NCBI GenBank assembly: GCA_007376485.1
Contig: VMGJ01000003.1
Span: forward strand, 81,252 to 145,251
DNA length: 64,000 nucleotides
Reading direction: 5' to 3'
From: Parcubacteria group bacterium Licking1014_17
GTDB taxonomy: Bacteria; Patescibacteriota; Minisyncoccia; 2-02-FULL-40-12; IGHO2-01-FULL-4-A
Positions within the stretch are counted from its first letter, which is position 1. Each line of letters starts with the position of its first letter. Below, piece by piece: positions 3,914-64,000 of this stretch. The notes below the pieces were generated by a model, which was given only the letters and a program-made list of their open reading frames with translations, was not told the origin of the DNA and made no database searches. The position numbers were made by a program, and so were the translations under genes.

Positions 3914-4392
3914 GTGTCGCGGCGGGTCTATAAGCCGGATTTTGTCTTCGCCCTCCTTCGCACGGGGCTACGGAAGGGCAATGTGCGATCATTTGTCTGG
4001 GATGAACATTGCTGTTCACCTCAAGCCCTTGCGGGCTATGCGTACGAACTTTTCGGAGCCCTATCCCGCTTGCGCGGAACGGACAACGCTGTACTTGCAC
4101 CGGGCAGGGTTTAGCACGCACCTATGTCACCATAGGGCGATCAGCCTTAGGCTGAACTTTTCACCTTTCACCCGCCTTGCGGCGGATTAGTATTGTCTCT
4201 GTGCCACTTTCCCTAAGTTTTGGCTCGCGCCTTTTCTCTTAAGAAGAAAAACTGCGAAACCTTATGCTTGGTGGTCGTTAGCCACTGCCCACTTCTTCAA
4301 CTTGCAGAGGGCTTGCCCTGAGCTTGTCGAAGGGAGTCCGGACTTTCCTCTGCCGCCTTGCGGGCGACAGCAACCGCCCAACCCACCGCGAC
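3914..4392 (-). ncRNA. rnpB: RNase P RNA, bacterial type A
   Basis: The minus strand contains GAGGAAAGTCCGGACTCC (P4 5' strand) and ACAAAATCCGGCTTATAG (P4 3' strand). P1 pairing is gtcgcggtgggt with acccgccgcgac, and internal GGGCAGTGGCTAACGACCACC-like elements are present. Confidence 0.85.
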
Positions 4393-5147: not shown

Positions 5148-6094
5148 TCCTTGTTTAGATAATCTATAATTTCTTCAGCTATTTTCTTAGCTTCTTCAAG
5201 ACTTGTGGAATTACACGCGCCCACGCCTTCATGCCCTCCCCCGCCATATTTTTTCATCAGTAAGCCTATATCGGCGTTACCCTTCTTCTCAATCCACGCG
5301 TTTTTACTAGCCCATATCTTATAATACCCGGATTTGCCGCCGGTTAACCTCACGGCATAAAGGGCCTCTGGGTAAATATAATATGGCAGAGCGCTGGAAG
5401 ATTTAAAAGACCAGTCTAGAATTTCGGTATAAACAAGGTTGCCAATCAATTTACTGCTGTCGGCGTAATGTTTATTGCTTTTTTGGACTTCGATGAGAAC
5501 TTTTTCTATGTCGTTGTGATATTTTTCACTATTTACTATATCTTCGATCGGCCCAGAAGCAATTCTGGTAATTATATCGCTTCTCACAGATTCATATGTT
5601 TCACCGTCCAACACTTTAAAATTGTCCAAAAAGGAAGATAGCCTAAAAGCCGGCTCTTTGCACTCAACCGCCTGTTGGGGAGAGCTGAAAGCGGAATCAA
5701 TAATATCCGACCAGTGGGCGGTATCGGCAAAATATTCCGGCGGCTTGTAACCATGTTTTTCCTCAAGAAATTTAAGGACCATGCTGCAACTGGATTTAGC
5801 ATTGGGGTCATAAAAATGCCAGTCGTCGTTTCTATAATTTTTCTCGTCTTCGGGATTGGTGAAGGTGGTTGAATGATGGTCAAACCACATATCGGCGTCC
5901 TTTCGATAGCGAAGGTCAATAAAAATACACGGTTTTTTTACGTCAAAAGTGAACCACTTGGCAATCAGAGTCGGGCTATAATCCAGAGAATGAAATAAAC
6001 CGACGGAATCCCCTCTTTTTTTGAGAAAATCATACAAGACGGCGCCGGTCGTTATCCCGTCAAAATCGTCGTGATAATAAATACTGTAATCCAT
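5144..6094 (-). CDS. DHH/DHHA1-family phosphoesterase (NrnA-like oligoribonuclease / pAp phosphatase)
   Basis: Motifs HDDFDG, FDHH and the C-terminal GGGGHEG (the GGGH signature of DHHA1). Confidence 0.7.
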   Translation of the reverse strand: MDYSIYYHDDFDGITTGAVLYDFLKKRGDSVGLFHSLDYSPTLIAKWFTFDVKKPCIFIDLRYRKDADMWFDHHSTTFTNPEDEKNYRNDDWHFYDPNAKSSCSMVLKFLEEKHGYKPPEYFADTAHWSDIIDSAFSSPQQAVECKEPAFRLSSFLDNFKVLDGETYESVRSDIITRIASGPIEDIVNSEKYHNDIEKVLIEVQKSNKHYADSSKLIGNLVYTEILDWSFKSSSALPYYIYPEALYAVRLTGGKSGYYKIWASKNAWIEKKGNADIGLLMKKYGGGGHEGVGACNSTSLEEAKKIAEEIIDYLNKD

Positions 6095-48426: not shown

Positions 48427-48546
48427 ATTGGTCTGGCGGCTACCCACTTTCGCAGTCATACGACCACTATCATAGGCCTTGATGGATTTCACTTCTGAGT
48501 TCGGAATGGGATCAGGTGGGACACCATCGGTATAGTCGCCAAGCCA
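48427..48546 (-). rRNA. rrf: 5S ribosomal RNA
   Basis: The minus strand reads ...CCCACCTGATCCCATTCCGAACTCAGAAGTGAAA... with a helix-I closure. Confidence 0.85.
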
Positions 48547-48983
48547 ATGTTTTTTATTACACGGCAAACAATGTCGCCTTAATGGCAACAGAATAAATTG
48601 GACACTCAACCTTGTAAGGAAATACAGACGATCTATTAGTAACTCTTGGCTCAAAGCCTTGCGGCTCTTACACCTGAGTCCTATCAACGTGGTAGTCTTC
48701 CACGGATCTGCGAAGCCTAATCTTGGGGCCCGTTTCGCGCTTATATGCTTTCAGCGCTTATCGGAACCGAACATAGCTGCCCAGCGCTGCCCTTGGCAGG
48801 ACAACTGGTAGACCAGAGGTTCGTTCATCCCGGTCCTCTCGTACTAGGGACAACCCCCCTCAAGCTTCTAACGCCCACACCAGATAAGGACCAACCTGTC
48901 TCACGACGGTTTGAACCCAGCTCGCGTACCCTTTTAATTGGCGAACAGCCAAACCCTTGGCAGCTTCTTCACCGCCAGGATAG

Positions 48984-49862
48984 GGCGCACATTTATCTTC
49001 TATTACTAGAAGTGCAGACTATATCTTCTCCCGTCTTCCAATCGAAAGGTGGGAGTTGGCGTATTATAGCAGTTAAAAAACTGCTATCCTCTCGCAATAG
49101 CGAGAAAGTCGTTACGGGGTAAGAGAAACTTTATACAATAGACTATCTAAAATATACGGCTTGATGATTTCACAAAACTTTTGCGATGATCTTTCCGGAA
49201 TATATATGTTGAATGTTTTACCCTTTTTATGGATTGCCGCTACGATTCCGAAATTCATCTTCAGACAATCCACTAGCATTTGCTGTTCTTGATACGAAAA
49301 TATATCCGTATTAAGTCTCAGCGCATTACAATCGTTCCGTTTATATCCGTCGTCCATTACCCAAACCGCCAGCGATAATGGTTCAATAAGAATTTCTTGA
49401 ATATTATCAGGAACTATTTTGATTCTATTCTTGTAAAACATATCCCGCCATTCCTGAAATATTCCGTTTGAACATGTCGAGAAATGTAACCGCCTGTATT
49501 CTTTATTCTCTTTCTTGTGGAACGAAGTGATAACTCTGGGCTTACTTGGCACAAGGTTTTTAAATACTTCATATTTCCATAATACATACTCCTTCTGTGC
49601 CATGCCGTGGTCTACTTTTAGACGCACGCCCTTGCCATTTTGCTCCAGATGCCCGTCGCCGAGCATTGTTCCAATTAATATCGCTTTTTGTGTTGCCGTT
49701 AATAGCATACTGTATAAAGCCTCTCCTACTTCCCACGATATTATCCTATCATAGCTGGGTAGCCTCTAATAGGACTCCATCGTTATTAGCCAACGTTGCA
49801 AGTTTATTTCTTAAAAGACACAAACTTGCCAACTCGAATTACTTCGAGTACGGCCCGTTTTG
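48984..49862 (-). mobile_element. Intron-like insertion (putative group I intron) in 23S domain V. It interrupts GATGTCGGCTCA | (T)ATCCTGG and carries a LAGLIDADG gene
   Basis: The exon sequence is contiguous with E. coli-like 23S on both sides, and the boundaries were located by eye. Confidence 0.6.
49112..49708 (-). CDS. LAGLIDADG homing endonuclease (two-motif, monomeric type)
   Basis: [11 protein letters not shown] and [10 protein letters not shown] motifs. Confidence 0.85.
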
Positions 49863-50172
49863 TTGAGCCGACATCGAGGTGCCGAACACTGCCGTCGCTA
49901 TGGACGCTCGGGCAGTACCAGCCTGTTATCCCCGGAGTAGCTTTTATCTGATGATCTTCCCCGTTCCTACGAACAAGGGTCGGTTCACTAACACCTGCTT
50001 TCGCATCTGCTTGACACATCCGTCTCACAGTTAAGCCGGCTTATGCGTTTGCACTATCGCTCCGATTTCCATCCGGAGCTAGCCGACCTTCGTACGCCTC
50101 CGTTACTCTTTAGGAGGCAACAGCCCCAGTTAAACTGCCCGCCAGACACTGTCTTGATGGCACCCTAGAAGG

Positions 50173-50474
50173 GGACGAGTAAACTCGTCCGAGCATCCTG
50201 TAATATTCGTTCAAATATCACAGGATGTTATAGATTATGAGCATTAAAGAATCTAATCTCATTTTTTTGATCGCTGATACAGGTCAGAAAGAGTTTTTCA
50301 TCCCCAAAACAAAAGGGTTGTAAACTCCTGTCGCCTATGTTTTTCAACACCGCATTGGCGACATGTTTCTCTAGATCCGAACTTTCAAAATCAAACTTTA
50401 TCTGCTGTGTTCGGACTTCTGGCCCGCCTTCACATTTATTAAAGTGAAGTTTCAGAAGTATCATTTTATTTCCT
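50173..50474 (-). other. About 300-nt insertion in the terminal loop of a 23S domain-V helix. The arms are ggtggcaccctggaagg and ccttctagggtgcc. It contains an SD-led ORF plus two 3' hairpins
   Basis: The helix arms are perfectly complementary and flank the insert, and the equivalent E. coli helix is a short hairpin. Confidence 0.5.
50228..50464 (-). CDS. Small ORF of 78 aa from the SD-proximal ATG, embedded in the 23S helix-loop insertion
   Basis: GGAAGGAGGAAATAAA-ATG. The ORF ends just before two stable hairpins. No recognisable domain. Confidence 0.4.
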   Translation of the reverse strand: MILLKLHFNKCEGGPEVRTQQIKFDFESSDLEKHVANAVLKNIGDRSLQPFCFGDEKLFLTCISDQKNEIRFFNAHNL

Positions 50475-50770
50475 CCTTCCAGGGTGCCACCAGTTAGAAT
50501 TACAAATGACAAAGATGGGTGTTTCATTGGCGGATCCACGCCTCCCGAAAGAGGCGCTTCAAATCCTCCCCACTACGCTACGCATTGCCGCTCGTAACCC
50601 AATATCAAGCTACAGTAAAGCTTCCGGGGTCTTTCCGTCTTGGTGCGGGTAGTCAGCATCTTTACTGACATTGCATTTTCACCGGGCTAGTGGCTGAGAC
50701 AGTCCCCCAGTCGTTACGCTATTCATGCGCGTGGGAACTTACCCCACAAGGTATTTCGCTACCTTTGGAC

Positions 50771-51522
50771 AGTTCATTCTTTTTATTAGTCTCGGCGGAT
50801 TCAATAAACTCGCCACCGGACAGCCTCATAGTCGCCTATGAGATCGGACTCTATCTTATCGCAATTTTTTGCGATTCTGACGTATTAGTCTCTGGGGATT
50901 CTCGAGATTTTTGGTAATCAGAAAGAGAATATTTTCGCTTCCTGCCCTTACCTTCATTTAACTTCTCTCTTAATTCAATAATTTTTTCAAGACCCTCACG
51001 GGTAAAATGTTTGCCATTCGAGATGGTCTCAACGATTCTTTTGAATATCGAGAAGTTTGTTTTCTTTGAAGATGATAAAAAATTATATCTTTCAAAGAAT
51101 GGCACAATGATATCTCTCAATGAGTTTAGATTATTCACTGAATAATTCCAAACTCCATCTTTTCTTAACTCTAACCTTCCTGCCCCGAAATGTTTTTTCA
51201 TTAACGCCAGGACTGTCTGATCTCTTTGAGCCACATTGAAGGTCAAATAGATTTTCCAGCCAAAGCGGTAGTCATTCCTGGGAATTAACGAAACATTGAA
51301 GCTACCTTCACCATCCACAAAACCGGTAAAATACCAAGCTGTCGAGATGGGAATTTGTTTAATAACTTCTTTCATTTTGTTTAGAGTCTCGAGTCTTTCC
51401 TGCGGATTATCTGCACTGATGTTTTATTACTGATCTTCGACGTTCGGATCTAGTAACATCAGATACTAACCAGACTTTCCCGCATATAGTCAGATTTTAC
51501 AACTACAACTGTCGTTATAGTT
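50771..51522 (-). mobile_element. Intron-like insertion (putative group I intron) in 23S domain IV at the helix-69 region. It interrupts GGTAACTATAACG | GTCCAAAGGTAGCG, near E. coli position 1917, and carries a LAGLIDADG gene
   Basis: Exon junctions were read directly. Confidence 0.6.
50851..51375 (-). CDS. LAGLIDADG homing endonuclease (single-motif, homodimeric type)
   Basis: FTGFVDGEGSF motif. Confidence 0.85.
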   Translation of the reverse strand: MKEVIKQIPISTAWYFTGFVDGEGSFNVSLIPRNDYRFGWKIYLTFNVAQRDQTVLALMKKHFGAGRLELRKDGVWNYSVNNLNSLRDIIVPFFERYNFLSSSKKTNFSIFKRIVETISNGKHFTREGLEKIIELREKLNEGKGRKRKYSLSDYQKSRESPETNTSESQKIAIR

Positions 51523-52554
51523 ACCGCCGTCGTTCACGGGTGCTTCGGGCATCTGCAATGAGCTTGCGCCCACCACTTCAACCGTTAACATTCCCGCACC
51601 GGACAAGCGTCACCCCGTATACATCCTCTTTCGAGTTAGCACGGAGTTGTGTTTTTGATAAACAGTCGCCAGGGGTCTTTCGCTGCGTCCGCGCTTGCGC
51701 GCGGAAGGCCTTATCGCTAACTTACGGCCGCTTTTTTGCCGAGTTCCTTAGCCACTAATCACCCGTTCGCCTTGGTACAATCATACCGGTCCACCTGTTT
51801 CGGTTTTAAATACGTACCCAATCCTTTTGTCTTTAGAAGTTTTTCTTGGAAGCGCGCTCCCTTGAATTTCACCTTGCGATGATTTCCACAACGCTTGGGT
51901 TTCGCACTGAAGCGGCGACACGGATTTGCCAATGTCGCACCCTTACGCCATGAACGCAAATCCTTAATGCGCTCAGGGTACTGCATTTCGTCTCTCCATC
52001 AGAAAGGACCGGGGGGCCGGAATATTAACCGGCTATCCTTCGGCCTCCCCCGCCCGCAAGCGGGGTTATCCTTAGGCACGCCTAACCCTCCGTTGATTGT
52101 CATTGCGGAGGAAATCTTGGACTTTCGGCGAGAGGGGTTTTCACCCTCTTTGCGGTTACTCATCCGAGCATTCTCTCCTCCAAGCGCTCCAGCATGTCTC
52201 ACGGCACACCTTCACTGCGCTTGAAGTGCTCCCCTACCGTATGGAGACTTCGTAAAGGACTTAAGAATAAAAATTCTTAAGAAAAAAAAATGGACGGCGA
52301 GGAAGTAACTATGGTATCCAGGCACCACCAAGGACTTGCCCGGTCCCGGAACCCCACTTTTATACGTGAGGTTCTTAAGTTGGACTTTTAGGGAGCAGTA
52401 GCCATGGTTTAGCGGTCCGCGATAGTTAACTTCCTCGCTTATTTTTCCTTTACGAAATCTCCACACCCACGCATTCGGTACTATGCTTAGCCCCGTTGAA
52501 TTTTCGGCGCATCTTGCCTCGCACGGCCGAAGCCGTGTATCGAATAGTAAGCTG

Positions 52555-52596
<42 letters not shown>

Positions 52597-53227
52597 TATC
52601 TGTCTAAGGCAAAACACTTCCTTCTGTCACTTAGCATAGATTTAGGGACCTTAAGCTGTGGTTAAACGGCTATTCCCGTCGCGACCGTGAAGCTTTGCCC
52701 CCACGGTCTCACTACCGGTCATTACGCCGCGGTATTCAAAGTTTGGTTGATAATCCTACCCAGAGGGCACAGAAAATCATCCAGAGCTTTACCCCCGCGG
52801 TTACTAACCGGCGCTGCCCCTAAAGGCATTTCGGGGAGAACCAGCTATTACCGAGTTCGATTAGCTTTTCACTCCTACCCGCAAGTCATCCGATGATGTT
52901 GCGCTATCAACCAGTTCGGGCCTCCATCCGCCTTTCGGCGAACTTCACCCTGCTCACGGGTAGCTCACCCGGCTTCGGGTCTTTTACAAGCTACGTACAC
53001 ACATATATAAACCGAGGTGCAAACTCACCCGGTTTATATAGATGTGAGTCGCGCTATTAACACTTGGTTTCCCTTTGTCTCCGCCCTGTCGGGCTTAGAC
53101 TTTGCAACTTGTAAAAACTCGCTCGGTCATTCTTCAATAGGCACACCGTCGCCCCTTCGTCTTGCGACGAAAGAGTTCCGGCTCTTTGTAGGCATATGGT
53201 TTCAGTTACTATTTCACTCCCCTCACC

Positions 53228-53270
<43 letters not shown>

Positions 53271-54292
53271 ATCATCAAAAGTATTTAGTCTTGGACCGTA
53301 GTAGGCCCGGATTCACCACGGATAGTCTCGTCCATGGTTACTTAGGTAAAGAGACTTTCGCCTCAATAATACGTAGAGTTCGGAAATTTTCGCTTACGGG
53401 GCTATCACCCTCTTTGGCCGGCCTTTCCAGGACCGTTCTGCTAACCGCCGAATTTGTAACTCTATTTATCTTTGGAGCACAGCTTTCAGCCTCCCATGCC
53501 TCATGGCAGTGGAAGCTGGTCGCCGTGCAGATAATTGTATTATCCCTGCAACACCCGTTTATGTACTTTTAGGTACGAACAGGTTTAGACTATTGCCCCT
53601 TTCGCTCGCCACTACTTGGGGTATCGCGAACAACAAACGCCTGTATGCCTTGCGGCACACGGGTGTTCATTGTTACGTTCGCTTTTTTTTCCTCTGGGTA
53701 CTGAGATGTTTCACTTCCCCAGGTACGCCTCCCGGCTTGCGCCGGAATCACCGCATGTTACTGCAGTGGGGTTTCCCCATTCGGACATCTCCGGATCAAA
53801 GCCCGCTAGACGGCTCCCCGAAGCTTATCGCAGTCACGCCACGTCCTTCATCGCCTTTTGATGTCAAGGCATCCTCCATACGCCCTTGTTATGCATTTCC
53901 TTACAAGGTTGAGTTTCCAATTCCTTGTAGTACTTCCGATACCAAAGCCGCATCTTCTTATACCAGAAGTTCTAATCAGACTTAATTGTTAAAATTCTTG
54001 CCTTTTGCTCCCTGCGGCTGGCTCCTTAAAGAGGCAATCGTAGGAGGCTCTCCTTCGCCGAAAACGTATCATGGCTTCGGGGGAGTGGGCAAATTAGACT
54101 TAAAAACCGCGTCCGGCGCGGCTGTTTTGAATCGCTTCAAGTTAAAAATCAGCACCAGCCGCTTGTTTTTATAAGTCTATTGTATTTGGTATTCATTTGT
54201 CTTTGGTAATTGTAGCAGAACCCAACCTACGGAGTCAATACGTATGTTGATAAGGCGTTGATATCGCTAAGGACATCTTCAGACGGCGCGCC

Positions 54293-54410
54293 CCTCACCA
54301 CTTTTGCCGCCCAGCCAACGATTACTTCCGTTAAAACCTATTGCTGATTGCGCCGTTGGTTTTAAGCTTAAAACCAACGGTAATTTTCTGGCAAAAGTGG
54401 TGGGGGGGGT
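54293..54410. other. Nested inverted-repeat structure about 400 nt upstream of the 23S 5' end. Outer stem ccaccacttttgcc / ggcaaaagtggtgg, inner perfect hairpin ccgttggtttt-aagctt-aaaaccaacgg
   Basis: Read directly. It may be an rRNA leader or processing element. Confidence 0.3.
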
Positions 54411-54425
54411 CAGCGTAAAACTCAA

Positions 54426-55121
54426 CTAATCATTTACATGCTTGCGCAAGTCGCCGATCAACGAATCGGCATGTTCCTTTCCGCCTAACCCAAAGGCAAT
54501 GCCTGCCGCCAACGCGGCGGCGGCGATAATACCCATGATTGCCGTGCGGATAATATCCGTGCCTACTTCAAGTTTCTCCAGAGCGATAAGGAAAGAGAAA
54601 ATCAGCACCGCCCACCTTGCTATAGACCCAAGGAAATTGGCTGACGCCAACTTTGCCGCTTTCATTGAACCGCGCACCAACCCTTCCGCGAACTTGGCGA
54701 CGAGAGCTCCGATAATAAGGACTATCGCCGCTACGAATACATTCGGCAGATAGAGCACGACGGTCTGCAAAAATTCCGTCACCTGATCTAAGCCGAGTAT
54801 ATCAGTGGCAGCCATCAACGATACTATTATGAAGAACCACTTCACCAATTCATAGAAGAATATCGGGCTGTCCAGTTTATATCCGCTCCTGTCCCAAATC
54901 TTTTTGAAGCCGATGCTTTCAAGAATCTTGTCCAGTTGAATTATTCTGACGAGGTGCCAGACAAGCTTCCCGATAATAATGGCGACAATCCAGCCGATTA
55001 TGAAAACCAAAATCGCCGCGATCAGCTGAGGCAGAAAATTCACAACACTGCCCCAAAGACTCGTAAAGGTATCTCTGATTATATCCAAACCACTTGCTCC
55101 GTAACTGTTATACATACTCAC
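54426..55121 (-). CDS. Small polytopic membrane protein with conserved TM-helix repeats (MscS-related / YnaI-like, tentative)
   Basis: 231 aa and about 5 TM helices. Confidence 0.45.
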   Translation of the reverse strand: MSMYNSYGASGLDIIRDTFTSLWGSVVNFLPQLIAAILVFIIGWIVAIIIGKLVWHLVRIIQLDKILESIGFKKIWDRSGYKLDSPIFFYELVKWFFIIVSLMAATDILGLDQVTEFLQTVVLYLPNVFVAAIVLIIGALVAKFAEGLVRGSMKAAKLASANFLGSIARWAVLIFSFLIALEKLEVGTDIIRTAIMGIIAAAALAAGIAFGLGGKEHADSLIGDLRKHVND

Positions 55122-55282
55122 ACCTCCTTTCCTTTTTTTCTTTAATCTCCATAACCAAAGGCAATAAAAAACGCTCCCCTATATTTTAACATTAAAAGAA
55201 AGAAAGCTATCCACAGAGACATACAGGGGGGCGGCCGTTCCGGCCGCCCCCCTGTATTTTACAATTCGGAAATAATAAAAGT

Positions 55283-57337
55283 TCAAATCAAAAATCTCGC
55301 TATCAGCAGCGCCACGATGTTTGCTACCTTAATCATCGGATTGATCGCCGGTCCCGCCGTGTCTTTGTAGGGGTCGCCGACTGTGTCGCCTGTCACCGCC
55401 GCCTGGTGGGCGGGGGATTTTTTGCCGCCGAAGTTCCCTTCCTCAATATATTTCTTGGCGTTGTCCCAGGCGGCGCCGCCGGAAGTCATTGATATTGCCA
55501 TAAACAAACCGGTGATAATTACGCCAACCAACAGACCACCCAACGCTTGTGGTCCCAGCAGAAAGCCGACAGCGATGGGAATTACGATTGGAATCAAGGC
55601 GGGGATTATCATTTCTTTCAAAGCCGCCCTGGTAACAATATCTACCGCCGCCGCGTAATCGGGTTTTCCCGTCCCCTCCATTATGCCGGCGATTTCCCTG
55701 AACTGCCGGCGCACTTCTTCAACTATCGCGCTACCGGCTTTGCCCACCGCCTTCATCGCCATCGAGCCGAAAAGATAAGGCATCATGCCGCCGATTAATA
55801 AACCGATTAAAACCGAAGGGTTAGTCAAATCAAAACTGATGGGCGCTCCGGCGCCGGCAAATTCTTGGGTGTAAGCCGAAAACAAAACCAGAGCCGCCAG
55901 TCCCGCCGAGCCGATAGCATAACCCTTGGTTACCGCCTTGGTAGTATTACCCACAGCGTCCAACGGATCCGTCGCCTGCCTTACTTCTTCCGGCAGGTTA
56001 GCCATCTCGGCGATGCCGCCGGCGTTATCCGTAATGGGACCGAAAGCGTCAATTGCCAAAACTATCGCCGCCAGCGAAAGCATGCTCAAAGTAGCCAGCG
56101 CCACTCCGTACACGCCGACAAAAATATATGAGCCGAGTATCGCCGCGCAAATCACCACCACCGGCCAGACCGTTGACCGCATGGAAACCGCCAGCCCGGC
56201 GATGATATTTGTGCCGTGCCCGGTCTTGGATGCTTCGGCAATCCCCCGCACCGGTGAGAATTTTTTTGAAGTGTAATAATCCGTAATCCAGAAAATCAAG
56301 CCGGTAACCGCCAGTCCTATTATCAGGGCCAGAAATATTCTATAGCCGGCGATTTCGCCCAGCACCGGTTTCCAGACCAACGTCACGTAAAAAGAAGCGA
56401 CAGCCAGTATCGCTGTAAGAATCAGTCCCTTGTACATTGAACCCATAATACCCCCGTTCGGCCCATTCGATGGACTCAGGGCAGGCAGGCTCGGGGCAAG
56501 CACCTTGGGACCCAATTTTACAACCAGCGAACCTACAATTGACGCCAGCACGCCGATAGCGCCGATAAAAAGCGGAAAGGTAATTATATTCGCGATTGAA
56601 GAATAAAGTAGATTGCCCAGAAGCATTACCGAAATCGTAGAGACCAGATAAGTTTCAAAGACATCCGCCGCCATGCCTGCTGTGTCGCCGACGTTGTCGC
56701 CTACGTTGTCAGCAATGACCGCCGGATTGCGCGGGTCGTCTTCCGGAATTCCGGCCTCAACTTTGCCGACCAAATCCGCGCCGACATCCGCGCCCTTCGT
56801 GTAAATCCCCCCGCCAAGGCGGGCAAAAACCGAAATCAGCGAACCGCCAAAGCCCAAACCAATCAAGGCGGTTACGTCTTTAGTGAACCAATAAAATAAA
56901 GTCAGAACCAGAAGCCCGAGGCCGACCACGAAAAAGCCGGTTACCGCCCCGCCGCGGAAAGCCAGATTGAAAGCGTTGACGATGCCCGATTTTGCCGCTT
57001 CCGCTACCCGCACGTTCGCCCGCACCGCCACAAACATCCCGATATAGCCGGCGAGCGCCGAAGCCGCCGCGCCCACAATAAACCCAATTGCCGTGGTTAC
57101 GCCCAGAAATATATACAGGATTATCGCTACCAAAATGCCGACGACGACTACGACCTTATACTGCCTTTTCAGATAGGCATTCGCTCCTTCGCGGATTGCC
57201 TGCGAGATGGACTTCATCTTTTCATCCCCCTGCGGTTGTTTCAAAACGTTAAGTATCAAAACCGCCCCGTAAACCAGCGCCGCCAGAGCCGACGCCAAAG
57301 AAAAAATTAAAATAGTCATATGGATTAAAACTAACAA
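55283..57337 (-). CDS. hppA: Membrane-bound proton/sodium-translocating pyrophosphatase
   Basis: [14 protein letters not shown] and other V-PPase signature segments, about 16 TM. Confidence 0.9.
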
Positions 57338-58356
57338 ATAGATATCTTTTTTTCCAGTTTTGACTCCATCGCTTTCTGAATATTATAACCGCAACAATGT
57401 TTCAAAACTCCCAGATAAGATTGTAAGTTATCGGTGTTAACTTTTTTCAAAATTCTTCTTCTTGTTTTTGTTCTCAAATTTACGCAGTATGGTCTGACAA
57501 TATAACCCAGAAAATCAATTCCCTGCCGGTATTTTCTAATGATAATTTTTTGCGGATGAAGATTTAATTGTAATATATTATTCAGATAATTGCCGACTAA
57601 AAACGATAATTCGTATAAATAATTTTTATCTTCGCTTAAAATAATAAAATCATCGCAATATCGGAGATAAAATTTCAATTTCAGATGGTGTTTTACAAAC
57701 TCATCCAACTCATTCAAGTATATATTCGCGAATAGCTGGCTTGTCACGTTGCCGAGTGGTAATCCTTTGTCAATATCTTTTTTAAAACTACTAATAATAA
57801 CTCCCAACAGCCAGAGTACGTTTTCGCCGTGAATCTTTCTTTTTATTAGACCAACTAGAATTTCGTGATCTATCGAATCAAAAAATCTCTTGACATCGCA
57901 TTTCAAAGCAAAAATATTCCTGCTGTTGTTTCTGCTCAATTTGCGGCAAAAAGATTTTAATCTCCTGATTCCTCTATACGTGCCTTTTCCCAGCCGACAA
58001 GAATAAGAATCAAAAATAAACCCAGCATCAAAAATTGGATAAAGAATCCTGAAAACGGCGTGATGCAGGATTCTATCTCTAACTGTGGCCTTATGAATGT
58101 GCCGAAGCTTTGGGTCAGTGATGCAAAAAGATTCGTATGGTGAGTGCTGATAAATCTTGGCTGATAGTTGATTGTGTAACCCAAATAGGTTATCTTCCAG
58201 ATTAAATTCGAATTCTAAAATGTCGCGTCTCTTCTTCTTTCCACGCCTAAATTCTTTCCACGCTAAAAACAAATTTTCCAAACTGATTATTTCTCCAAAT
58301 AAATCATGACTCTTATAAGCCCCCCCCCAAAAAAAAACTCCATACCTTTGATTCAT
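57331..58356 (-). CDS. DGR reverse transcriptase (cassette 3). The start is ambiguous, and the ORF as drawn reads through a T9/G9 homopolymer
   Basis: RYCDDFIIL and LPLGNVTSQ motifs. Confidence 0.8.
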
Positions 58357-58671
58357 AGTATTTGCGATTTATACAGGAAAATATATCTTGTCGGACTTAA
58401 AATCCCCAAAAGAGACAGGCTGGGAATTTGCGCAAAAATTGAATCTATATGCCTTGATTTAATAAACTTACTAATTTCAGCCGCTTTTGAATCTAAAGAT
58501 AGGAAATTGTCTTTTCTTACTATTGCTCGTGTTAAAACAGAAATTCTAAAAAGATTGGTCCGGCTTGCGCATGAAATTGACGTAATCAAATCAGTTAATT
58601 ATATAGAATTGGAATCGCAATTGCAGGAAATATCAAAAATGATAAATGGCTGGATCAAATATTTAAAGTGA
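58306..58671 (+). CDS. avd: Avd-like accessory protein (cassette 3)
   Basis: 121 aa, [10 protein letters not shown] encoded by a C9A9 tract, with a C-terminal ...EISKMINGWIKYLK. Confidence 0.8.
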   Translation: MTLISPPPKKNSIPLIHSICDLYRKIYLVGLKIPKRDRLGICAKIESICLDLINLLISAAFESKDRKLSFLTIARVKTEILKRLVRLAHEIDVIKSVNYIELESQLQEISKMINGWIKYLK

Positions 58672-58700
58672 GAAAAACTCCCTAAGGAGTTTTTCTCACA

Positions 58701-58824
58701 AAACTACCTGACGGGCACGGAGGTTGTCGTTGGCATTGCCTGTGTTGTTCCAGTTCACGTTGACCTTGTCATCGCTGTTCCGATACATGTTTGGCACGTC
58801 GCCATCCTTGTTGCGAGAACCCGC
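58701..58824 (-). repeat. DGR template repeat TR3
   Basis: 124 bp at a constant offset of 410 from VR3. At least 20 mismatches, all at plus-strand T positions of the TR. It is AAC-rich in the VR frame. Confidence 0.85.
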
Positions 58825-59034
58825 CTTGGTACCTGACCTCATCTTTCCCACCGAAAATCTTGGAAAAATTTTCTGTGTTGGCTGGCTCCATGGCCAGAAT
58901 TATTCAAGAAACATCTCTAGTTAGAGAATCTTCACCAAGATCAGGCACGTAGTTTCTCTGTTTCAGGCAAACCGCTATCCACTTGGGATCGGTTATAATA
59001 GCCGGGTCTATTCTACAAAAATATAGCAAAAAGA

Positions 59035-59066
59035 GAAAGGCCCGCATCAGTCAGCCACTGCGGGCC
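59035..59066 (-). terminator. Hairpin plus T-tract downstream of target gene 3
   Basis: aggcccgca...tgcgggcct stem followed by TTCTCTTTTTGC on the minus strand. Confidence 0.45.
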
Positions 59067-59102
59067 TTATAAAAAGCGAACGAGAAAAAAGGAATAAGAG
59101 AA

Positions 59103-59873
59103 CTACAGAGAAACTACCTGACGGGCACGGAGGCGGCCGCTGGCAAGGCCTGTGAGGTCCCAGCTCACGTAGACCCTGACATCGCTGCCCCGATACATGA
59201 CAGGCACGACGCCATCCTTGTGGCGAGAACCCGCACATAAAGTTACGTTCTTATTGTCGAGATGGCCACTGGTCTTCCAATTGAACCATCGCCCAAGAAG
59301 AAGCCTTTCAAGAAGATTTATACTATTGATTTTCTTCTCCGCGACCCAACTGGCGGAGAGATTCTTGAGCTCTTCGTCAGCCTCTACGCGGTCACGCGTC
59401 CAGATAACGTAGGGCTTGCCGACGGGCATCCTGACGTTTTTTGTGACGACTTCATCCAAATTAGCATCACAAAATTTCCATTTCTCCGGGAACGAATCGA
59501 AAACCATCTGCATTGTCACACCGGGAACAACCAGCACACCCCAATTAAAACCGGGGGTTACTGGGGGCAGGGGAATTTGCGATGTTTTTCGGATTCTGAT
59601 GTTAAGCGCCTCCTTATAGAAATCCGCCCAGTCCTTCAGGAAGGATTTAACATCCAGCCCCGAGGTGGCATAGGTGATGCCTCCGTTGTCCTGATTAGTG
59701 GCTGTAGTTACGTCACCAACCAGTACGATTTCTGCCTCGCCGCGAAGGGCTTTGAGATGTTGACTGGCAATATTGCCACCACTCAGCTTTTTCACGTCTT
59801 CTGGCGTCCACCCCCCACGCTCAAAAGCGTGATCCAGCTCGGCTGCCTGTCGACTTGTCATAATTGATCCCAT
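59103..59873 (-). CDS. DGR variable (target) protein 3. It is cytoplasmic and 256 aa
   Basis: SD AGGAGA before the ATG. The C-terminus ...GSRHKDGVVPVMYRGSDVRVYVSWDLTGLASGRLRARQVVSL is encoded by VR3. Confidence 0.75.
   Translation of the reverse strand: MGSIMTSRQAAELDHAFERGGWTPEDVKKLSGGNIASQHLKALRGEAEIVLVGDVTTATNQDNGGITYATSGLDVKSFLKDWADFYKEALNIRIRKTSQIPLPPVTPGFNWGVLVVPGVTMQMVFDSFPEKWKFCDANLDEVVTKNVRMPVGKPYVIWTRDRVEADEELKNLSASWVAEKKINSINLLERLLLGRWFNWKTSGHLDNKNVTLCAGSRHKDGVVPVMYRGSDVRVYVSWDLTGLASGRLRARQVVSL
59111..59234 (-). repeat. DGR variable repeat VR3
   Basis: See TR3. Confidence 0.85.
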
Positions 59874-60050
59874 GACGTGTCTCCTCTGTTTTGCGACCTG
59901 TCTTTTCAGACGTGTCGCGGGTTTGTGTTTGGCTCAAAGTGAGCCGATATCAAAGTACTAAAAGCACATTAACGTTACCAATAATTACCCTACTTGTCAA
60001 CCCCGAACGAAGCCGCAAGGGTTCGCAGCGTGTTCCCGCTTCGTTTGGGG

Positions 60051-61115
60051 TCAAGCCAGCAGATTTTTGTCTTCTTTATTTTCCTTCTCCCCCAGCTCAA
60101 TAATATTTTTAGTTCTGTCCAGCATCAATCCCAGCCTTTTTTCGGTATCGTTATAAGAACCGGAGGCATCCGTAAGGTGTTTGCCGAGCCGCCGGAAGTC
60201 CTCGGCGAGCTTGGCGCCGTCAATGGTGATTCTTTCCAGCCGCTTAATAATCTCCTTCGTTTGCGAGCCAACTTGAATGTCCCTCAACCAGTGCCTTATC
60301 GCCGAAATTGACAGGGCAAAAGTATTGGGTGATACCAAAATCACCCTTTTGCTTCGGGCGTAGGCGGTGATGTCAATTTCTTTCATATTGCTGATAATTT
60401 CGTAATAAACCGTTTCGGCGGGAACGTACATCAGCGCCAAATCGGTCGTCCCCTCGGAAGGCAGAATATATTTGGCGGCGATTTCATCTATTTTCTTTTT
60501 AACGTCGGAGAAAAATATTTTTCTATACTGCTCCTTCTCGGCGTCGGAATTGGCATTGACCATTTTCTCAAAATTTTCCCAGTTGAATTTGGAATCAACC
60601 GGCAGGAGCAAGCCGTTGGGCAAAGTCAAAACCGCGTCCACCGCTTCCCCGCTTTTGAAATAATGCTGGAGCTGGAAATTATCGCGGGCGAAATATTGGT
60701 TCAGCGATGCCTCCAGCGACGACTCGCCCCAGATGCCGCGGAGCTTCGGGGATTTAAAAATATTTTGGAACGAAGAAACATCTTTCACACTGTCGTGAAC
60801 TTGTTTGACGGTGTCTTTCAGCTGGGTCAGCCCGCTGGTAAAACCCTCCACTTGTTTGTGGACATTAATGGAAGACCGCTCCACGGTTTCGCGGCTTTCT
60901 TTTAATTGGTCCGAAACCAATTTCAGAGTGTCTCTAAGAGCTTGACTGGTTGAGTTGCTAAGGCTTTCTATCCGCTGGCTCAAAATCTCAATTCCCTTGT
61001 CGTCTTTGGGTTCACGCCGGCGGACGAGAAAATAAGCCACAGCCATTCCTACAACCAACCCGACAATTCCGATAATTAAAGTCTGGGACATATTATGTAA
61101 TAAATCTAAACTCAA
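60051..61115 (-). CDS. rmuC: DNA recombination protein RmuC
   Basis: N-terminal TM anchor, coiled-coil, and the conserved RmuC C-terminal domain. Confidence 0.85.
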   Translation of the reverse strand: MSLDLLHNMSQTLIIGIVGLVVGMAVAYFLVRRREPKDDKGIEILSQRIESLSNSTSQALRDTLKLVSDQLKESRETVERSSINVHKQVEGFTSGLTQLKDTVKQVHDSVKDVSSFQNIFKSPKLRGIWGESSLEASLNQYFARDNFQLQHYFKSGEAVDAVLTLPNGLLLPVDSKFNWENFEKMVNANSDAEKEQYRKIFFSDVKKKIDEIAAKYILPSEGTTDLALMYVPAETVYYEIISNMKEIDITAYARSKRVILVSPNTFALSISAIRHWLRDIQVGSQTKEIIKRLERITIDGAKLAEDFRRLGKHLTDASGSYNDTEKRLGLMLDRTKNIIELGEKENKEDKNLLA

Positions 61116-61251
61116 AAGGCGGTATGGTCAAATTTTTTGGAGTCACGGGGTTTACTTATAAAATAAGATAGGATACAATGAGAATGCCACTTGCCTGTAG
61201 CTTACTAAACAATTGCCCAGTTCTTTTCTGAAGAAAGGAGGTGATAATAGT

Positions 61252-61317
61252 ATGTATAATAGCAATCATAACGCGGCGGCGTGGAAACGCCCTAAACTGC
61301 GCGCGAATAAACAATAA
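61252..61317 (+). CDS. Candidate 21-aa small ORF (MYNSNHNAAAWKRPKLRANKQ) with a near-perfect SD
   Basis: AAAGGAGGTGA 7 nt upstream of the ATG, and 11 nt upstream of the FecR-domain gene. Confidence 0.3.
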   Translation: MYNSNHNAAAWKRPKLRANKQ

Positions 61318-61328
61318 TTTATAAACAT

Positions 61329-62723
61329 ATGAAAAAAGCCATATTTATCGTAGTTTTTCTCATTGTGATAGTCGGTATCGGTTTGTATCTGACCCAAATG
61401 ACTCCGACGGGCGGCAATCTGGCGAAAATGACCGCCTCGCCCTCCGTCAGTGAAATCGTCGAAGTGAGCCAGCCGTGGATTGAGGTTCTCTCCGCCGGCG
61501 TTTACATCTCCGGCGCCGAAACCGGCGAATCCCCCGCCAAAACCGAATTAAAAACCGGAGATGAGGTGATAGCCGGAAGCGTTATTGAAACCGATAAAAC
61601 AGGGCTTGCTGAAATCCATTTCCCAGATGGCTCGGTTGCCCGCGTTGATTCCGACACAAAATTAACCATCAAAAACGCGAGTTATGATAAAAATACCGAA
61701 ACGCTGGTTGTAAAAATCGGTCTCGCGCTGGGGCGCGTCTGGTCCAAGGTGATCGGATTAGCTACTCCCGAATCGTCATGGGAAGTGGAAACCTCAAACG
61801 CCGTGGCTACGGTGAGAGGCACAGCTTTCGGTATGGAAATTGTCGGCGACGAAACAACCGTTGTCGGTTCGGAAAACGAGGTTGAAGTCCAGGCGATTGG
61901 TCCCAAATCCGGAAAACCGATTGAAAAACCGACAAAAGTCATTAAAGGCATGTTTTTGACTTTTAAAAATCAGGACATAATTGACGTGGCTTACGGCAGA
62001 AAAGCTTTTGCCGCCAAACGGATAACTGCGGCGCTGGCTCAAAAAGAATGGATAACCCGCTTTCAAAAAGCCGATACCTCTTTTGACGAACGGATAAATA
62101 GTGTGAAGTCAAATATCACTGACAACGACCCGATAAAAATAAGAAATGAAATCAGGATGGATATGGCAAAACGGCTGATTGAACTGCGCAAAGAAATTCT
62201 TCAAAATACCGCCAGTCCTTCCGCGTCTCCCAGCCCTGTGTCGGGAAACGAAAATCTAAAGCTTGGAAACTTGAGCAATGCTATCTCCTCGGGGCTTGGC
62301 CAAGAACTTAGTGTTACCGTAGCTAAACCGGTTTCATTGGAAATTGCTTCGGCTCAGCCGCTGGAAAAAATCACGGAAGGCAGCGCTGTAATTTTCAAAT
62401 CAATCCTGACTCTAAGCGATGGCAGTAAAAAAGCGGTTACCGATTTGTCCGAGTGGAAAGTTTCGGGTTCTATCGGCTCAATTACGAGCCCGGGAACGCT
62501 GGCGGCGAAAATCGGCACATTGGAATTAAGAGCCCAAACGGCTTACGGCTATGTTACCGCCTCGTGGAAGGACCCCAAAACCGGCGCGATTTTTACGGGC
62601 AAGTCAGTTGTCTTCAATGTTTACCCAAAAACGGCGACTCCCACGCCAACGCCGTCTCTTCTTAAATCGCTGATTCCTCCTTTGCTTATCAAGCCAACAC
62701 CCACGCCGACTCAAGGCAGATAA
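61329..62723 (+). CDS. Membrane-anchored FecR-domain protein with a C-terminal Ig-like region and a PT-rich tail
   Basis: An N-terminal TM helix, then a FecR-like beta-sandwich (VATVRGTAFGMEI...). Confidence 0.7.
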   Translation: MKKAIFIVVFLIVIVGIGLYLTQMTPTGGNLAKMTASPSVSEIVEVSQPWIEVLSAGVYISGAETGESPAKTELKTGDEVIAGSVIETDKTGLAEIHFPDGSVARVDSDTKLTIKNASYDKNTETLVVKIGLALGRVWSKVIGLATPESSWEVETSNAVATVRGTAFGMEIVGDETTVVGSENEVEVQAIGPKSGKPIEKPTKVIKGMFLTFKNQDIIDVAYGRKAFAAKRITAALAQKEWITRFQKADTSFDERINSVKSNITDNDPIKIRNEIRMDMAKRLIELRKEILQNTASPSASPSPVSGNENLKLGNLSNAISSGLGQELSVTVAKPVSLEIASAQPLEKITEGSAVIFKSILTLSDGSKKAVTDLSEWKVSGSIGSITSPGTLAAKIGTLELRAQTAYGYVTASWKDPKTGAIFTGKSVVFNVYPKTATPTPTPSLLKSLIPPLLIKPTPTPTQGR

Positions 62724-62731
62724 AAATTATC

Positions 62732-64000
62732 CATGAAAAATAAGACCGCCATCCTCGGAATCGGGATTACCGCCGGAGTTCTGGTCTGGCTTTCTTTTTA
62801 TGTTGGCTTATTTAAGGGTTTTGAATATTTTATTGAAGACCGTCTTGTTTCGGAAAAACCGGTCAGTCCCGATATTCTGATACTTTCCGTAGATAACGAG
62901 TCAATCAGCCGCATAGGCCAGTGGCCGTGGCCACGATCGGTTTTCGCGAGGGCTTTAGATAAAATGCATGATTACAAGCCGGCGGTCTTGGGAATTGACG
63001 TAATATTTTCCGAACCGTCACGTTTCGGTTCTGCCGATGATATGGTATTATCGCAGGCAATCGGCAGAAGCGGTTTCCCCGTAGTTATGACTGAAGAAGC
63101 CTCGCCTTTGATAATCAGAAAAGGCGAATCGCCGTTTTTAGCCGGTAACGTCATCTCAACCCTTCCAATTTTCACAAAAAATTCAAATGTTGCCTTGGGG
63201 CACGTAAATCTTGTGCAGGATAAAGACGGCGTCGTCCGCCGGCTACCCTACCGCATCGAAACAAACGGCCCCGCACGACTTCCGCCGATGGTTAGTTTTT
63301 CTTCGGAAGTTGCCAGATTAAGCGGGAAGGACGGGGCAAGCACAGCCGGCATTTCGCCTTCCGAGAGAATTGTATACGCCGGTCCGCCCGGTTCGGTAAG
63401 ACAAATTTCGTTTTACAGAATCCTCGAAGAAGAATATCTGGTAAAATCGCTCAAAAACAAAATTATTCTTATCGGCGCGACTTCGCCGGATTTGCATGAT
63501 GAAAAGCTGACGCCCGTTTCCAAGGGCACGGAAATGCCCGGGGTTGAAATCCAGGCGCAGGCGGTAAATATGTTTCTGAAGGGTTACCGGCTATTCGACA
63601 TCCCGGATTATTTGTCCGCCTTGTGGGTATTGCTGGCGGCTGTCATCGCGTCGCTAGTATTTCTGATACTGAATCGCCCTCTCGCGCCCATACTTGCAAA
63701 TGTCGGGCTCGGCGTTATTTATTCAGTAGCCATACTTTTGCTCTTTGACGCGGGGAAGGTCGCAAACTTTTTGCATATAAATCTGGCGTGGACTTTGCCG
63801 ACAATTTTGGTGCCCAGTTACAGATATTTTGCCGGAGAGAAAGAAAAGCAGAAAATGAAACGGCTATTCGGCAAATATGTTTCAAAAAGCGTGCTGAATG
63901 AAATTTTGAAAAATCCCGATAAAGTGAAAATCGGGGGCGAGGAAAGGGAAATCACCGTGTTGTTTTCGGACATCAGGGGATTCACGACTCTGTCCGAAAA
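62732..64000 (+). CDS. CHASE2 sensor domain fused to a class III adenylate/guanylate cyclase (3'-partial at the window end)
   Basis: Extracytoplasmic CHASE2-like region flanked by TM helices, then ITVLFSDIRGFTTLSE. Confidence 0.75.

Follow-up and report, generated by a model that had tools for sequence, protein, structure and literature searches.

A conserved 78-aa protein gene in a stem-bounded insert at helix 79 of a Parcubacterial 23S rRNA gene

The 23S rRNA gene in the window, a 64,000-nt stretch of DNA from Parcubacteria group bacterium Licking1014_17 (CPR), has, at the tip of helix 79, an insert bounded by a stem and encoding a 78-aa protein. Conservation of its sequence gives us high confidence that the ORF is a genuine gene whose protein sequence is under selection. 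The fuller reading that we favour, and hold to be slightly on the probable side, is that an insert resembling an intervening sequence (IVS) carries this small-protein gene as a passenger, which would be co-transcribed with the rRNA and released by RNase III.

The 23S gene measures 5285 nt, compared to the 2925 positions of the Rfam LSU_rRNA_bacteria model. A 5S rRNA gene follows it, while Rfam found no 16S rRNA in the window. The helix 79 insert is flanked within the 23S gene by two group-I-like introns bearing LAGLIDADG ORFs: an insert of ~740 nt near E. coli 1917-1921, containing a LAGLIDADG_1 ORF, and one of ~880 nt at about E. coli 2515 with a LAGLIDADG_2 ORF, each with a weak group I intron signal. 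The helix 45 site holds a further stem-bounded insert, which is ORF-less (52239-52466), and there are smaller insertions besides. The window protein is identical to this organism's 'hypothetical protein CEN90_414'. An exact 41-mer from the 23S flank had 0 matches in GTDB genome contigs, indicating that the lineage is absent from the species representatives. The source setting of this Parcubacterium is groundwater. The features discussed below are as follows.

48616..53900, minus strand: 23S rRNA gene (Rfam RF02541, 2032.7 bits, model positions 1-2925 covered end to end; blastn against E. coli 23S)
48431-48543, after the 23S gene: 5S rRNA (Rfam)
50475..50492, minus strand: 5' arm of the closing helix, UGGUGGCACCCUGGAAGG (inverted-repeat finder, RNAfold, covariation in 5 sequences)
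50173..50474, minus strand: insert interior, 302 nt (rest of the ribosome-binding site, ORF, two 3' hairpins)
50471..50476, minus strand: Shine-Dalgarno sequence GGAGGA, straddling the inner end of the closing helix
50228..50464, minus strand: coding sequence of the 78-aa protein P0001, including the TAA stop codon (50230-50228)
50194..50227, minus strand: hairpin 1, 14-bp stem and 6-nt loop without a T-run, directly after the stop codon
50173..50190, minus strand: hairpin 2, GGACGAG-UUUA-CUCGUCC, without a T-run, directly before the 3' arm
50155..50172, minus strand: 3' arm of the closing helix, CCUUCUAGGGUGCCAUCA (inverted-repeat finder, RNAfold, covariation)

Insertions in rRNA genes are the rule in the CPR, where those of at least 100 bp occur in 82% of 23S genes; the ORFs known from them mostly encode homing endonucleases, and RNase III-type IVSs have been proposed for some of the sites (PMC11270868). 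The largest class in the survey of Tsurumaki et al. (2024, PMC11270868) consists of 469 non-intron 23S insertions lacking an annotated ORF. Since that survey catalogued only ORFs with Pfam domains (PMC11270868), the family described here would fall in this class. Among the frequent 23S insertion sites given with coordinates in the part of the survey drawn on here, none lies near helix 79 (PMC11270868).

In the local Rfam alignment, the tip of helix 79 (model positions ~2236-2240) has 322 nt instead of a loop of 5 nt; interpolation between flanking blastn blocks places the site at roughly E. coli 2205-2215. Replacement of a helix loop by an extended paired stem-loop, here a 5-nt loop by 322 nt closed by a covarying 18-bp helix, is an arrangement characteristic of an IVS, and 322 nt also places the insert among CPR rRNA insertions as delimited by Tsurumaki et al. 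(2024), at least 100 bp relative to E. coli (PMC11270868). The outer ~7 nt of the 5' arm belong to native helix 79 and the inner ~11 nt to its extension, and with the last two G of the arm begins the ribosome-binding site GGAGG. This site (50476-50472) is followed after a 7-nt spacer by the ATG at 50464. The insert as a whole is strongly folded (z = -9.7 versus dinucleotide shuffles). An earlier note on this DNA had delimited an insert at 50173-50474, which coincides exactly with the 302 nt between the inverted-repeat arms, and had called the enclosing helix perfectly paired, which is right if G-U pairs are allowed (18 continuous pairs by RNAfold). Its short hairpin at the corresponding E. coli helix agrees with the 5-nt loop in the model, and its order of elements (ribosome-binding site and ATG, 78-codon ORF, two hairpins) is what we read on the minus strand. 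Rfam (E <= 1) found no group I intron signal at 50155-50492, such signals being limited to the two neighbouring inserts.

Could such an ORF have arisen by chance in a structured rRNA insert, without specifying a protein? When the dinucleotides of the insert were shuffled, 80 of 5000 sequences (1.6%) contained a complete ATG-initiated ORF of 78 codons or more, the structure of the insert is strong, and a word-index search with the single window protein returned only the protein itself. However, phmmer against 1.84 billion cluster representatives identified 2 full-length homologues, P0002 (77 aa, 47% identity, E = 1.9e-12) and P0003 (77 aa, 33% identity, E = 4.2e-5). The 3 proteins align end to end with one one-residue gap each in P0002 and P0003, share 20 invariant columns, and have kept their start and stop positions at 33-47% identity. 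Comparison at the DNA level was between the window gene and the P0003 gene on contig L005, P0002 being compared at the protein level. Identities at codon positions 1, 2 and 3 were 0.43, 0.65 and 0.27, respectively; thus, second positions were conserved while third positions were at random expectation, a pattern that points to selection on the protein rather than on the RNA. Likewise, the L005 ORF region is not unusually structured (folding z = -1.2, compared to -3.9 for the window ORF region), which argues that similarity between the homologues does not reflect conserved RNA structure. In addition, a ribosome-binding site is correctly spaced at both of these independent loci. Based on the 1.84-billion scan and the codon-position pattern, we regard a chance ORF as effectively refuted and give it next to no weight.

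Composition of the window ORF was also examined. Its GC content by codon position is 0.49/0.27/0.37, and its codon score is +7.8 in frame, while the two remaining sense frames score -50 and -87. Normalised per codon, the in-frame score is close to that of one of the intron LAGLIDADG genes and above that of the other; it falls in the lowest 6% of host-gene segments. Overall GC content is 37.6%, compared to 47% for host genes. The earlier note had proposed either a new IVS-type protein or an rRNA-embedded gene expressed upon excision of the insert, and its interpretation is partly supported: the ORF is real and conserved, with 2 homologues and a protein-like codon-position pattern, and it lies in an IVS-like, stem-bounded insert.

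The family is rare. Word-index searches together with the 1.84-billion-representative scan yielded 3 clusters among about 15 billion proteins, and a word-index search with the profile returned nothing beyond these. P0003 occurs on 14 contigs, 6 of which we examined and found to be essentially one sequence, differing only by one substitution, located upstream of the ORF, in one contig. Samples with this sequence include ENA ERZ28563803 and JGI 3300025317. The family thus has 3 independent members. A related-locus search with the family alignment over genome and metagenome contigs found nothing; its degenerate patterns were too loose, and its confirmation step relied on the window protein. A degenerate codon pattern for nine invariant residues had 0 matches in viral contigs and 16 in JGI metagenome contigs, of which only the known P0003 contig was real. 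Finally, no significant tblastn match was obtained in phage or plasmid collections.

On L005, from another Parcubacterium, the P0003 gene follows the 3' end of the 23S gene and precedes the 5S gene, on the rRNA strand:

204: end of the 23S rRNA
311-333 and 607-629: inverted repeat of 23 nt, 91% complementary, bracketing the gene
342-575, rRNA strand: ORF
680-792: 5S rRNA

At its inner end the 5' arm of this repeat reads GAGGAGG, which precedes the ATG at 342 by 8 nt, and one hairpin follows the stop codon. The window and L005 loci therefore have a common plan: a long helix closes the unit and bears the ribosome-binding site at its inner end, and the ORF, one or more hairpins and the 3' arm come next. 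For P0002, which is on a 1607-bp contig (ENA ERZ27297570), a gene for a 213-aa LAGLIDADG_2 protein lies 349 nt downstream. In relatives, a group I intron is located about 40 nt beyond helix 79 on its 3' side, and the LAGLIDADG_2 ORF found there in L040 is likewise 213 aa long. Since the neighbour of P0002 agrees in type and length with the ORF of this helix 79-adjacent intron, P0002 is probably located in helix 79 as well.

We likewise compared related 23S genes, which were found via homologues of the neighbouring LAGLIDADG_2 protein. Four of them cover helix 79 (L024, L032, L033 and L035). Between the same helix 79 flanks these relatives have 111-125 nt, compared to 338 nt in the window and a short hairpin in E. 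coli. In each of the 4 the region folds into a rod, an extension of ~100 nt, and none has a family member. Pairing of the closing helix is maintained across the window and the 4 relatives: 98.9% of cells are paired and 13 of the 18 pairs changed on both sides, whereas slid-register controls gave 38-53% pairing. Shuffles matched the observed covariation in 0 of 500 cases on four of five measures and in 1 of 500 on the fifth. The ~100-nt helix 79 extension is, on this comparative evidence, a selected RNA feature of the clade. Since the extension is a clade trait, the part peculiar to the window is about 215 nt, including the ORF. The interiors of the rods could not be aligned to one another or to the window. 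The possibility that the ORF-less rods are deletion derivatives of the cassette was rejected because their interiors lack homology. The earlier note would have given up its proposal if the ORF were not conserved in related inserts. The proposal is not refuted on this point, since homologues of the protein exist, although most related helix 79 inserts are ORF-less. The ORF-bearing form of helix 79 was thus found in the window only, and the ORF-less extension in 4 of 4 relatives examined.

Selection on the rod raises the alternative that the helix 79 extension and its 302-nt interior are part of the mature 23S rRNA, a bacterial equivalent of the eukaryotic expansion segment ES31, the ORF being translated only from a minor pool of free precursor or not at all. 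We assign this reading a substantial minority of our belief. Retention of a covarying ~100-nt rod in all 4 relatives suggests selection as an RNA structure, the window ORF region is itself somewhat structured (z = -3.9), and ES31 is located at helix 79 in eukaryotes (PMC12368212). The position at the ES31 site suggests that the tip is surface-exposed, such that excision and retention would both be structurally possible. In contrast, a conserved protein and an intact ribosome-binding site would be hard to keep if locked in the ribosome, the same gene occurs in the 23S-5S spacer, which is discarded during processing, and the rod interiors are not conserved. The CPR insertions studied so far are, moreover, missing from transcripts (Brown et al. 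2015, as cited in PMC11270868). The conserved ORF-less rod in itself would suit a retained expansion segment just as much as an IVS.

Signals for transcription of the gene were also examined. Promoter-like matches numbered two, compared to 0.9 expected by chance, and neither is usable, one of them being placed such that transcription would start inside the ORF; the gene strand has no terminator. Because it has no convincing promoter of its own, the cassette would be transcribed within the rRNA precursor, and the ORF is probably expressed from the rRNA transcript. Cleavage of the closing helix would follow, RNase III being the most likely enzyme by comparison with classical 23S IVSs; it would leave the 23S rRNA fragmented or with a helix 79 stub and free a hairpin-capped mini-mRNA of roughly 300 nt for translation. 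Release by RNase III is possible by analogy to the IVS of Coxiella (helix 45), whose excision by this enzyme was demonstrated experimentally (PMC4990558). We also asked how accessible the ribosome-binding site is in computed structures. In the window, G50476 and G50475 are paired and the other four Shine-Dalgarno bases are mostly unpaired (P unpaired 0.84-0.94), whereas in L005 most of the site is engaged in pairing (mean P unpaired 0.13). When the closing helix was shortened in silico, the ribosome-binding site did not become exposed. The idea that processing activates translation is weakly supported by these models, because 4 of the 6 bases of the window site are already unpaired in the precursor and trimming was without effect in L005.

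The Coxiella IVS likewise suggests a different outcome for the ORF, namely that it was functional in an ancestral element and that its expression has since been lost, as proposed for the S23p ORF. That ORF is apparently not expressed: it is decaying, it is untranslated unless supplied with an engineered ribosome-binding site, and its own weak site is removed by cleavage (PMC4990558). The largely paired ribosome-binding site of L005 is in keeping with such silence. However, length, start and stop have been kept in 3 lineages at 33-47% identity, codons have diverged to randomness at third positions yet stay conserved at second positions, and both the window and L005 have a strong ribosome-binding site at canonical spacing. 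Taken together, these features make a silent relic rather improbable.

We next consider the protein itself. P0001-P0003 constitute a new, rare family of small, acidic proteins of 77-78 aa, with predicted pI values of 6.3, 4.9 and 4.4, the window protein being slightly acidic (6.3). Two AlphaFold runs with different members as target both gave a beta-beta-alpha-beta-beta-beta order, with mean pLDDT of 73.6 and 82.2 and pTM of 0.62 and 0.70. Invariant acidic and polar residues are E12, D25, D30, N37, R46, S47, N68, N74 and N77. None of the 3 members matched Pfam at E <= 10, and NCBIfam, PHROGs and PADLOC gave no match. The LAGLIDADG, HNH and GIY-YIG motifs are absent, as the earlier note had stated, with neither Pfam nor NCBIfam matching at E <= 10. 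Foldseek searches with the two consistent models gave best E values above 1 in the PDB and of ~0.2 in BFVD.

The only resemblance came from profile searches, the check proposed earlier for the protein, which placed it in no Pfam family and gave a weak similarity to Pcc1, a KEOPS subunit. In the PDB profile search, residues 18-68 matched Pcc1 of P. furiosus at E ~0.2 per single domain; the lower value of E = 3.6e-5 comes from a tandem-fused chain that is counted twice, and all four matches are variants of one Pcc1 sequence. Comparison with hhalign gave a probability of 55% over 47 columns at 30% identity. One reading of the protein is accordingly a distant Pcc1-like (KEOPS/KH-like) dimerisation module, or a factor for rRNA or ribosome biogenesis made in step with rRNA. 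The predicted beta-alpha-beta-beta order agrees with Pcc1 in the aligned part, and co-transcription with rRNA would suit a ribosome-linked role. The Pcc1 fold, though, is a beta-alpha-beta-beta-alpha dimer, whereas the predicted C-terminus of the family is a strand rather than a second helix; Pfam gave no Pcc1 match, and no Pcc1 structure was among the Foldseek matches listed for the two models (40 and 50), in which nothing reached E < 1. Absence of the family from close relatives argues against a core function. We consider this reading quite improbable, and treat the resemblance to Pcc1 as an unconfirmed lead.

Alternatively, the protein may be a new, very small mobility factor (a nuclease of the homing type or an aid to recombination) by which the cassette is carried from one rRNA-operon site to another. 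The family occupies two different rRNA-operon positions, ORF-less alleles exist in relatives, the GC content of the ORF is low, and the invariant acidic and polar residues would be candidates for an active site. The ORFs known from CPR insertions are mostly those of homing endonucleases (PMC11270868). Yet no nuclease domain or fold was detected by Pfam, NCBIfam, PHROGs, PADLOC or Foldseek, a pI of 4.4-6.3 is unusual for DNA binders, and the two insertion sites (helix 79 and the 23S-5S spacer) share no obvious target sequence. At 77 aa, the protein would also be smaller than known homing endonucleases. We likewise found no target-site or end features indicative of mobility. A motif common to hairpin 1 of the window and the L005 closing helix (AUCCUGUGA / ACAGGAU) was discarded as within chance expectation. 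We view a mobility factor as unlikely. A passenger of the rRNA operon that is mobile or horizontally acquired, as opposed to a core ribosomal component, is probable from the rarity of the family, its two positions in rRNA operons, the ORF-less alleles of relatives and its low GC content. Our best guess is that the gene helps to maintain or propagate the cassette.

The 23S-5S spacer of L032 contains an unrelated 81-aa ORF that is bracketed by a stem and has its own ribosome-binding site. This ORF and a 77-aa ORF in the same spacer were rejected as family members on comparison. We tentatively suggest, as a proposal that we consider doubtful at present, that rRNA operons of Parcubacteria host an unrecognised class of stem-bounded mini-gene cassettes, for which the rRNA promoter and RNase III would yield small mRNAs. 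The 77-78-aa family, with its copies in helix 79 and the 23S-5S spacer, may be the first example, and the L032 ORF hints at a wider phenomenon.

These findings bear on how rRNA genes are read. Because rRNA genes are normally masked in annotation, proteins encoded inside them are systematically missed, and six-frame re-screening of the 'unannotated' CPR rRNA insertions is suggested. The family is conserved at the amino-acid level and was found in rRNA operons wherever its genomic context was examined; the literature searched contained no description of a conserved family confined to rRNA operon transcripts in a recurring stem-bounded package. Helix 79 joins the places at which bacterial 23S rRNA tolerates large inserts. 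If expressed, the gene would be a clear bacterial example of an mRNA that is a by-product of rRNA processing, and if the class of mini-gene cassettes is real, rRNA precursors would act as carriers of translated genes. If not expressed, the insert simply adds another form to the well-known insertions of CPR rRNA genes.

Comparison with known systems places the insert closest to several elements while setting it apart from each. Classical IVSs occur at helices 9, 25 and 45, whereas the insert described here is at helix 79. In the 23S IVSs of Leptospira, Coxiella burnetii and others that encode S23p (PF05635), a stem-bounded insert likewise replaces a helix loop and carries one small ORF, and ORF-containing and ORF-less forms coexist among relatives, as they do here. 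In contrast to those systems, the present family also occurs in the 23S-5S spacer, and it has a predicted alpha/beta fold without a match to PF05635 (23S_rRNA_IVP), whose members form a four-helix bundle. The stem of the Coxiella IVS is an RNase III substrate (PMC4990558). The ribosome-binding site of the helix 79 insert is a strong GGAGG, compared to a weak one in Coxiella. ES31 prolongs the same helix tip (PMC12368212), but is non-coding and retained in the ribosome, whereas the insert carries a gene. Like 23S group I introns with homing-endonuclease ORFs, the insert would be a selfish element with an ORF of its own; unlike them, it has neither a group I signal nor a homing-endonuclease domain, and it replaces the loop at a hairpin tip. 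Cleavage-dependent translation of mRNAs processed by RNase III occurs in phage T7 early mRNAs, lambda N and E. coli adhE. The helix 79 insert resembles these in that a long helix adjoins or overlaps the ribosome-binding site and in its predicted hairpin-capped products; it differs in that the precursor would be an rRNA and in that the ribosome-binding site is only partially masked in the window.

The window 23S rRNA gene contains two group-I-like introns, both of which gave Rfam group I scores below the gathering threshold:

~50775-51513, minus strand, group-I-like intron at about E. coli position 1917-1921, with a 174-aa LAGLIDADG_1 ORF (50851-51375)
~48982-49860, minus strand, group-I-like intron at about E. 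coli position 2515, with a 198-aa LAGLIDADG_2 ORF (49112-49708)

The intron at E. coli ~1917-1921 has no counterpart in L024, a related 23S gene. A further group I intron, likewise bearing a LAGLIDADG_2 ORF, was observed in the relatives L032 (~1333), L033 (~4060), L035 (~1785) and L040 (1-1129), where it lies ~40 nt to the 3' side of helix 79. This site corresponds to the helix 80 / P-loop region, in which the window 23S gene lacks a group I intron.

The same gene also carries an insert resembling an intervening sequence (IVS) at 52239-52466 on the minus strand, located between E. coli 23S positions ~1111 and ~1186, which is the helix 45 region. It consists of 186 nt enclosed by a 21-nt inverted repeat (52239-52259/52446-52466), and no credible ORF was found within these 186 nt. 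Separately, a AUCCUGUGA / ACAGGAU motif was common to the hairpin directly following the stop codon of the 78-aa ORF in helix 79 (50194-50227) and to the closing helix (311-333/607-629) of the cassette with the homologous gene in L005, a contig of another Parcubacterium. Since a 9-mer match between sequences of such length does not exceed chance expectation, the motif was set aside as evidence.

No 16S rRNA gene was found within the 10 kb upstream of the window 23S gene (53900-64000), and the rRNA genes of this organism therefore appear to be unlinked. The upstream region instead carries genes encoding a mechanosensitive channel and an H+-pyrophosphatase. Elsewhere in the window, the class A RNase P RNA (3915-4389, minus strand) measures 475 nt compared to a 367-position model, indicating that this RNA probably holds extra sequence as well.

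The minus-strand interval 57331-59873 holds a complete diversity-generating retroelement (DGR), composed of the following features:

57331-58356, minus strand, reverse transcriptase ORF (RVT_1)
58701-58824, minus strand, template repeat of 124 nt
59111-59234, minus strand, variable repeat
59103-59873, minus strand, 256-aa ORF carrying the variable repeat at its 3' end

All 20 mismatches between the template and variable repeats, compared over 124 nt, fall at template adenines (20/20). The 256-aa ORF returned no Pfam match.

The ~840-nt 23S-5S spacer of the relative L032 (GCA_964446135.1, 5012-5852) holds an 81-aa ORF (5399-5644) with AAGGAG a few nt before its ATG and a short inverted repeat on both sides (5367-5379/5676-5688). 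This ORF, which has neither a Pfam match nor similarity to the 77-78-aa family of the window cassette, may represent a second case of a mini-gene enclosed by a stem within the rRNA operon of a Parcubacterium. In L028, a further relative, the 5S rRNA is followed ~850 nt downstream by an ORF of the bAvd / 23S_rRNA_IVP family (PF05635; 2280-2630), with a 253-aa ORF in between. In this genome the classical 'IVS protein' family is found beside the rRNA operon rather than within it.
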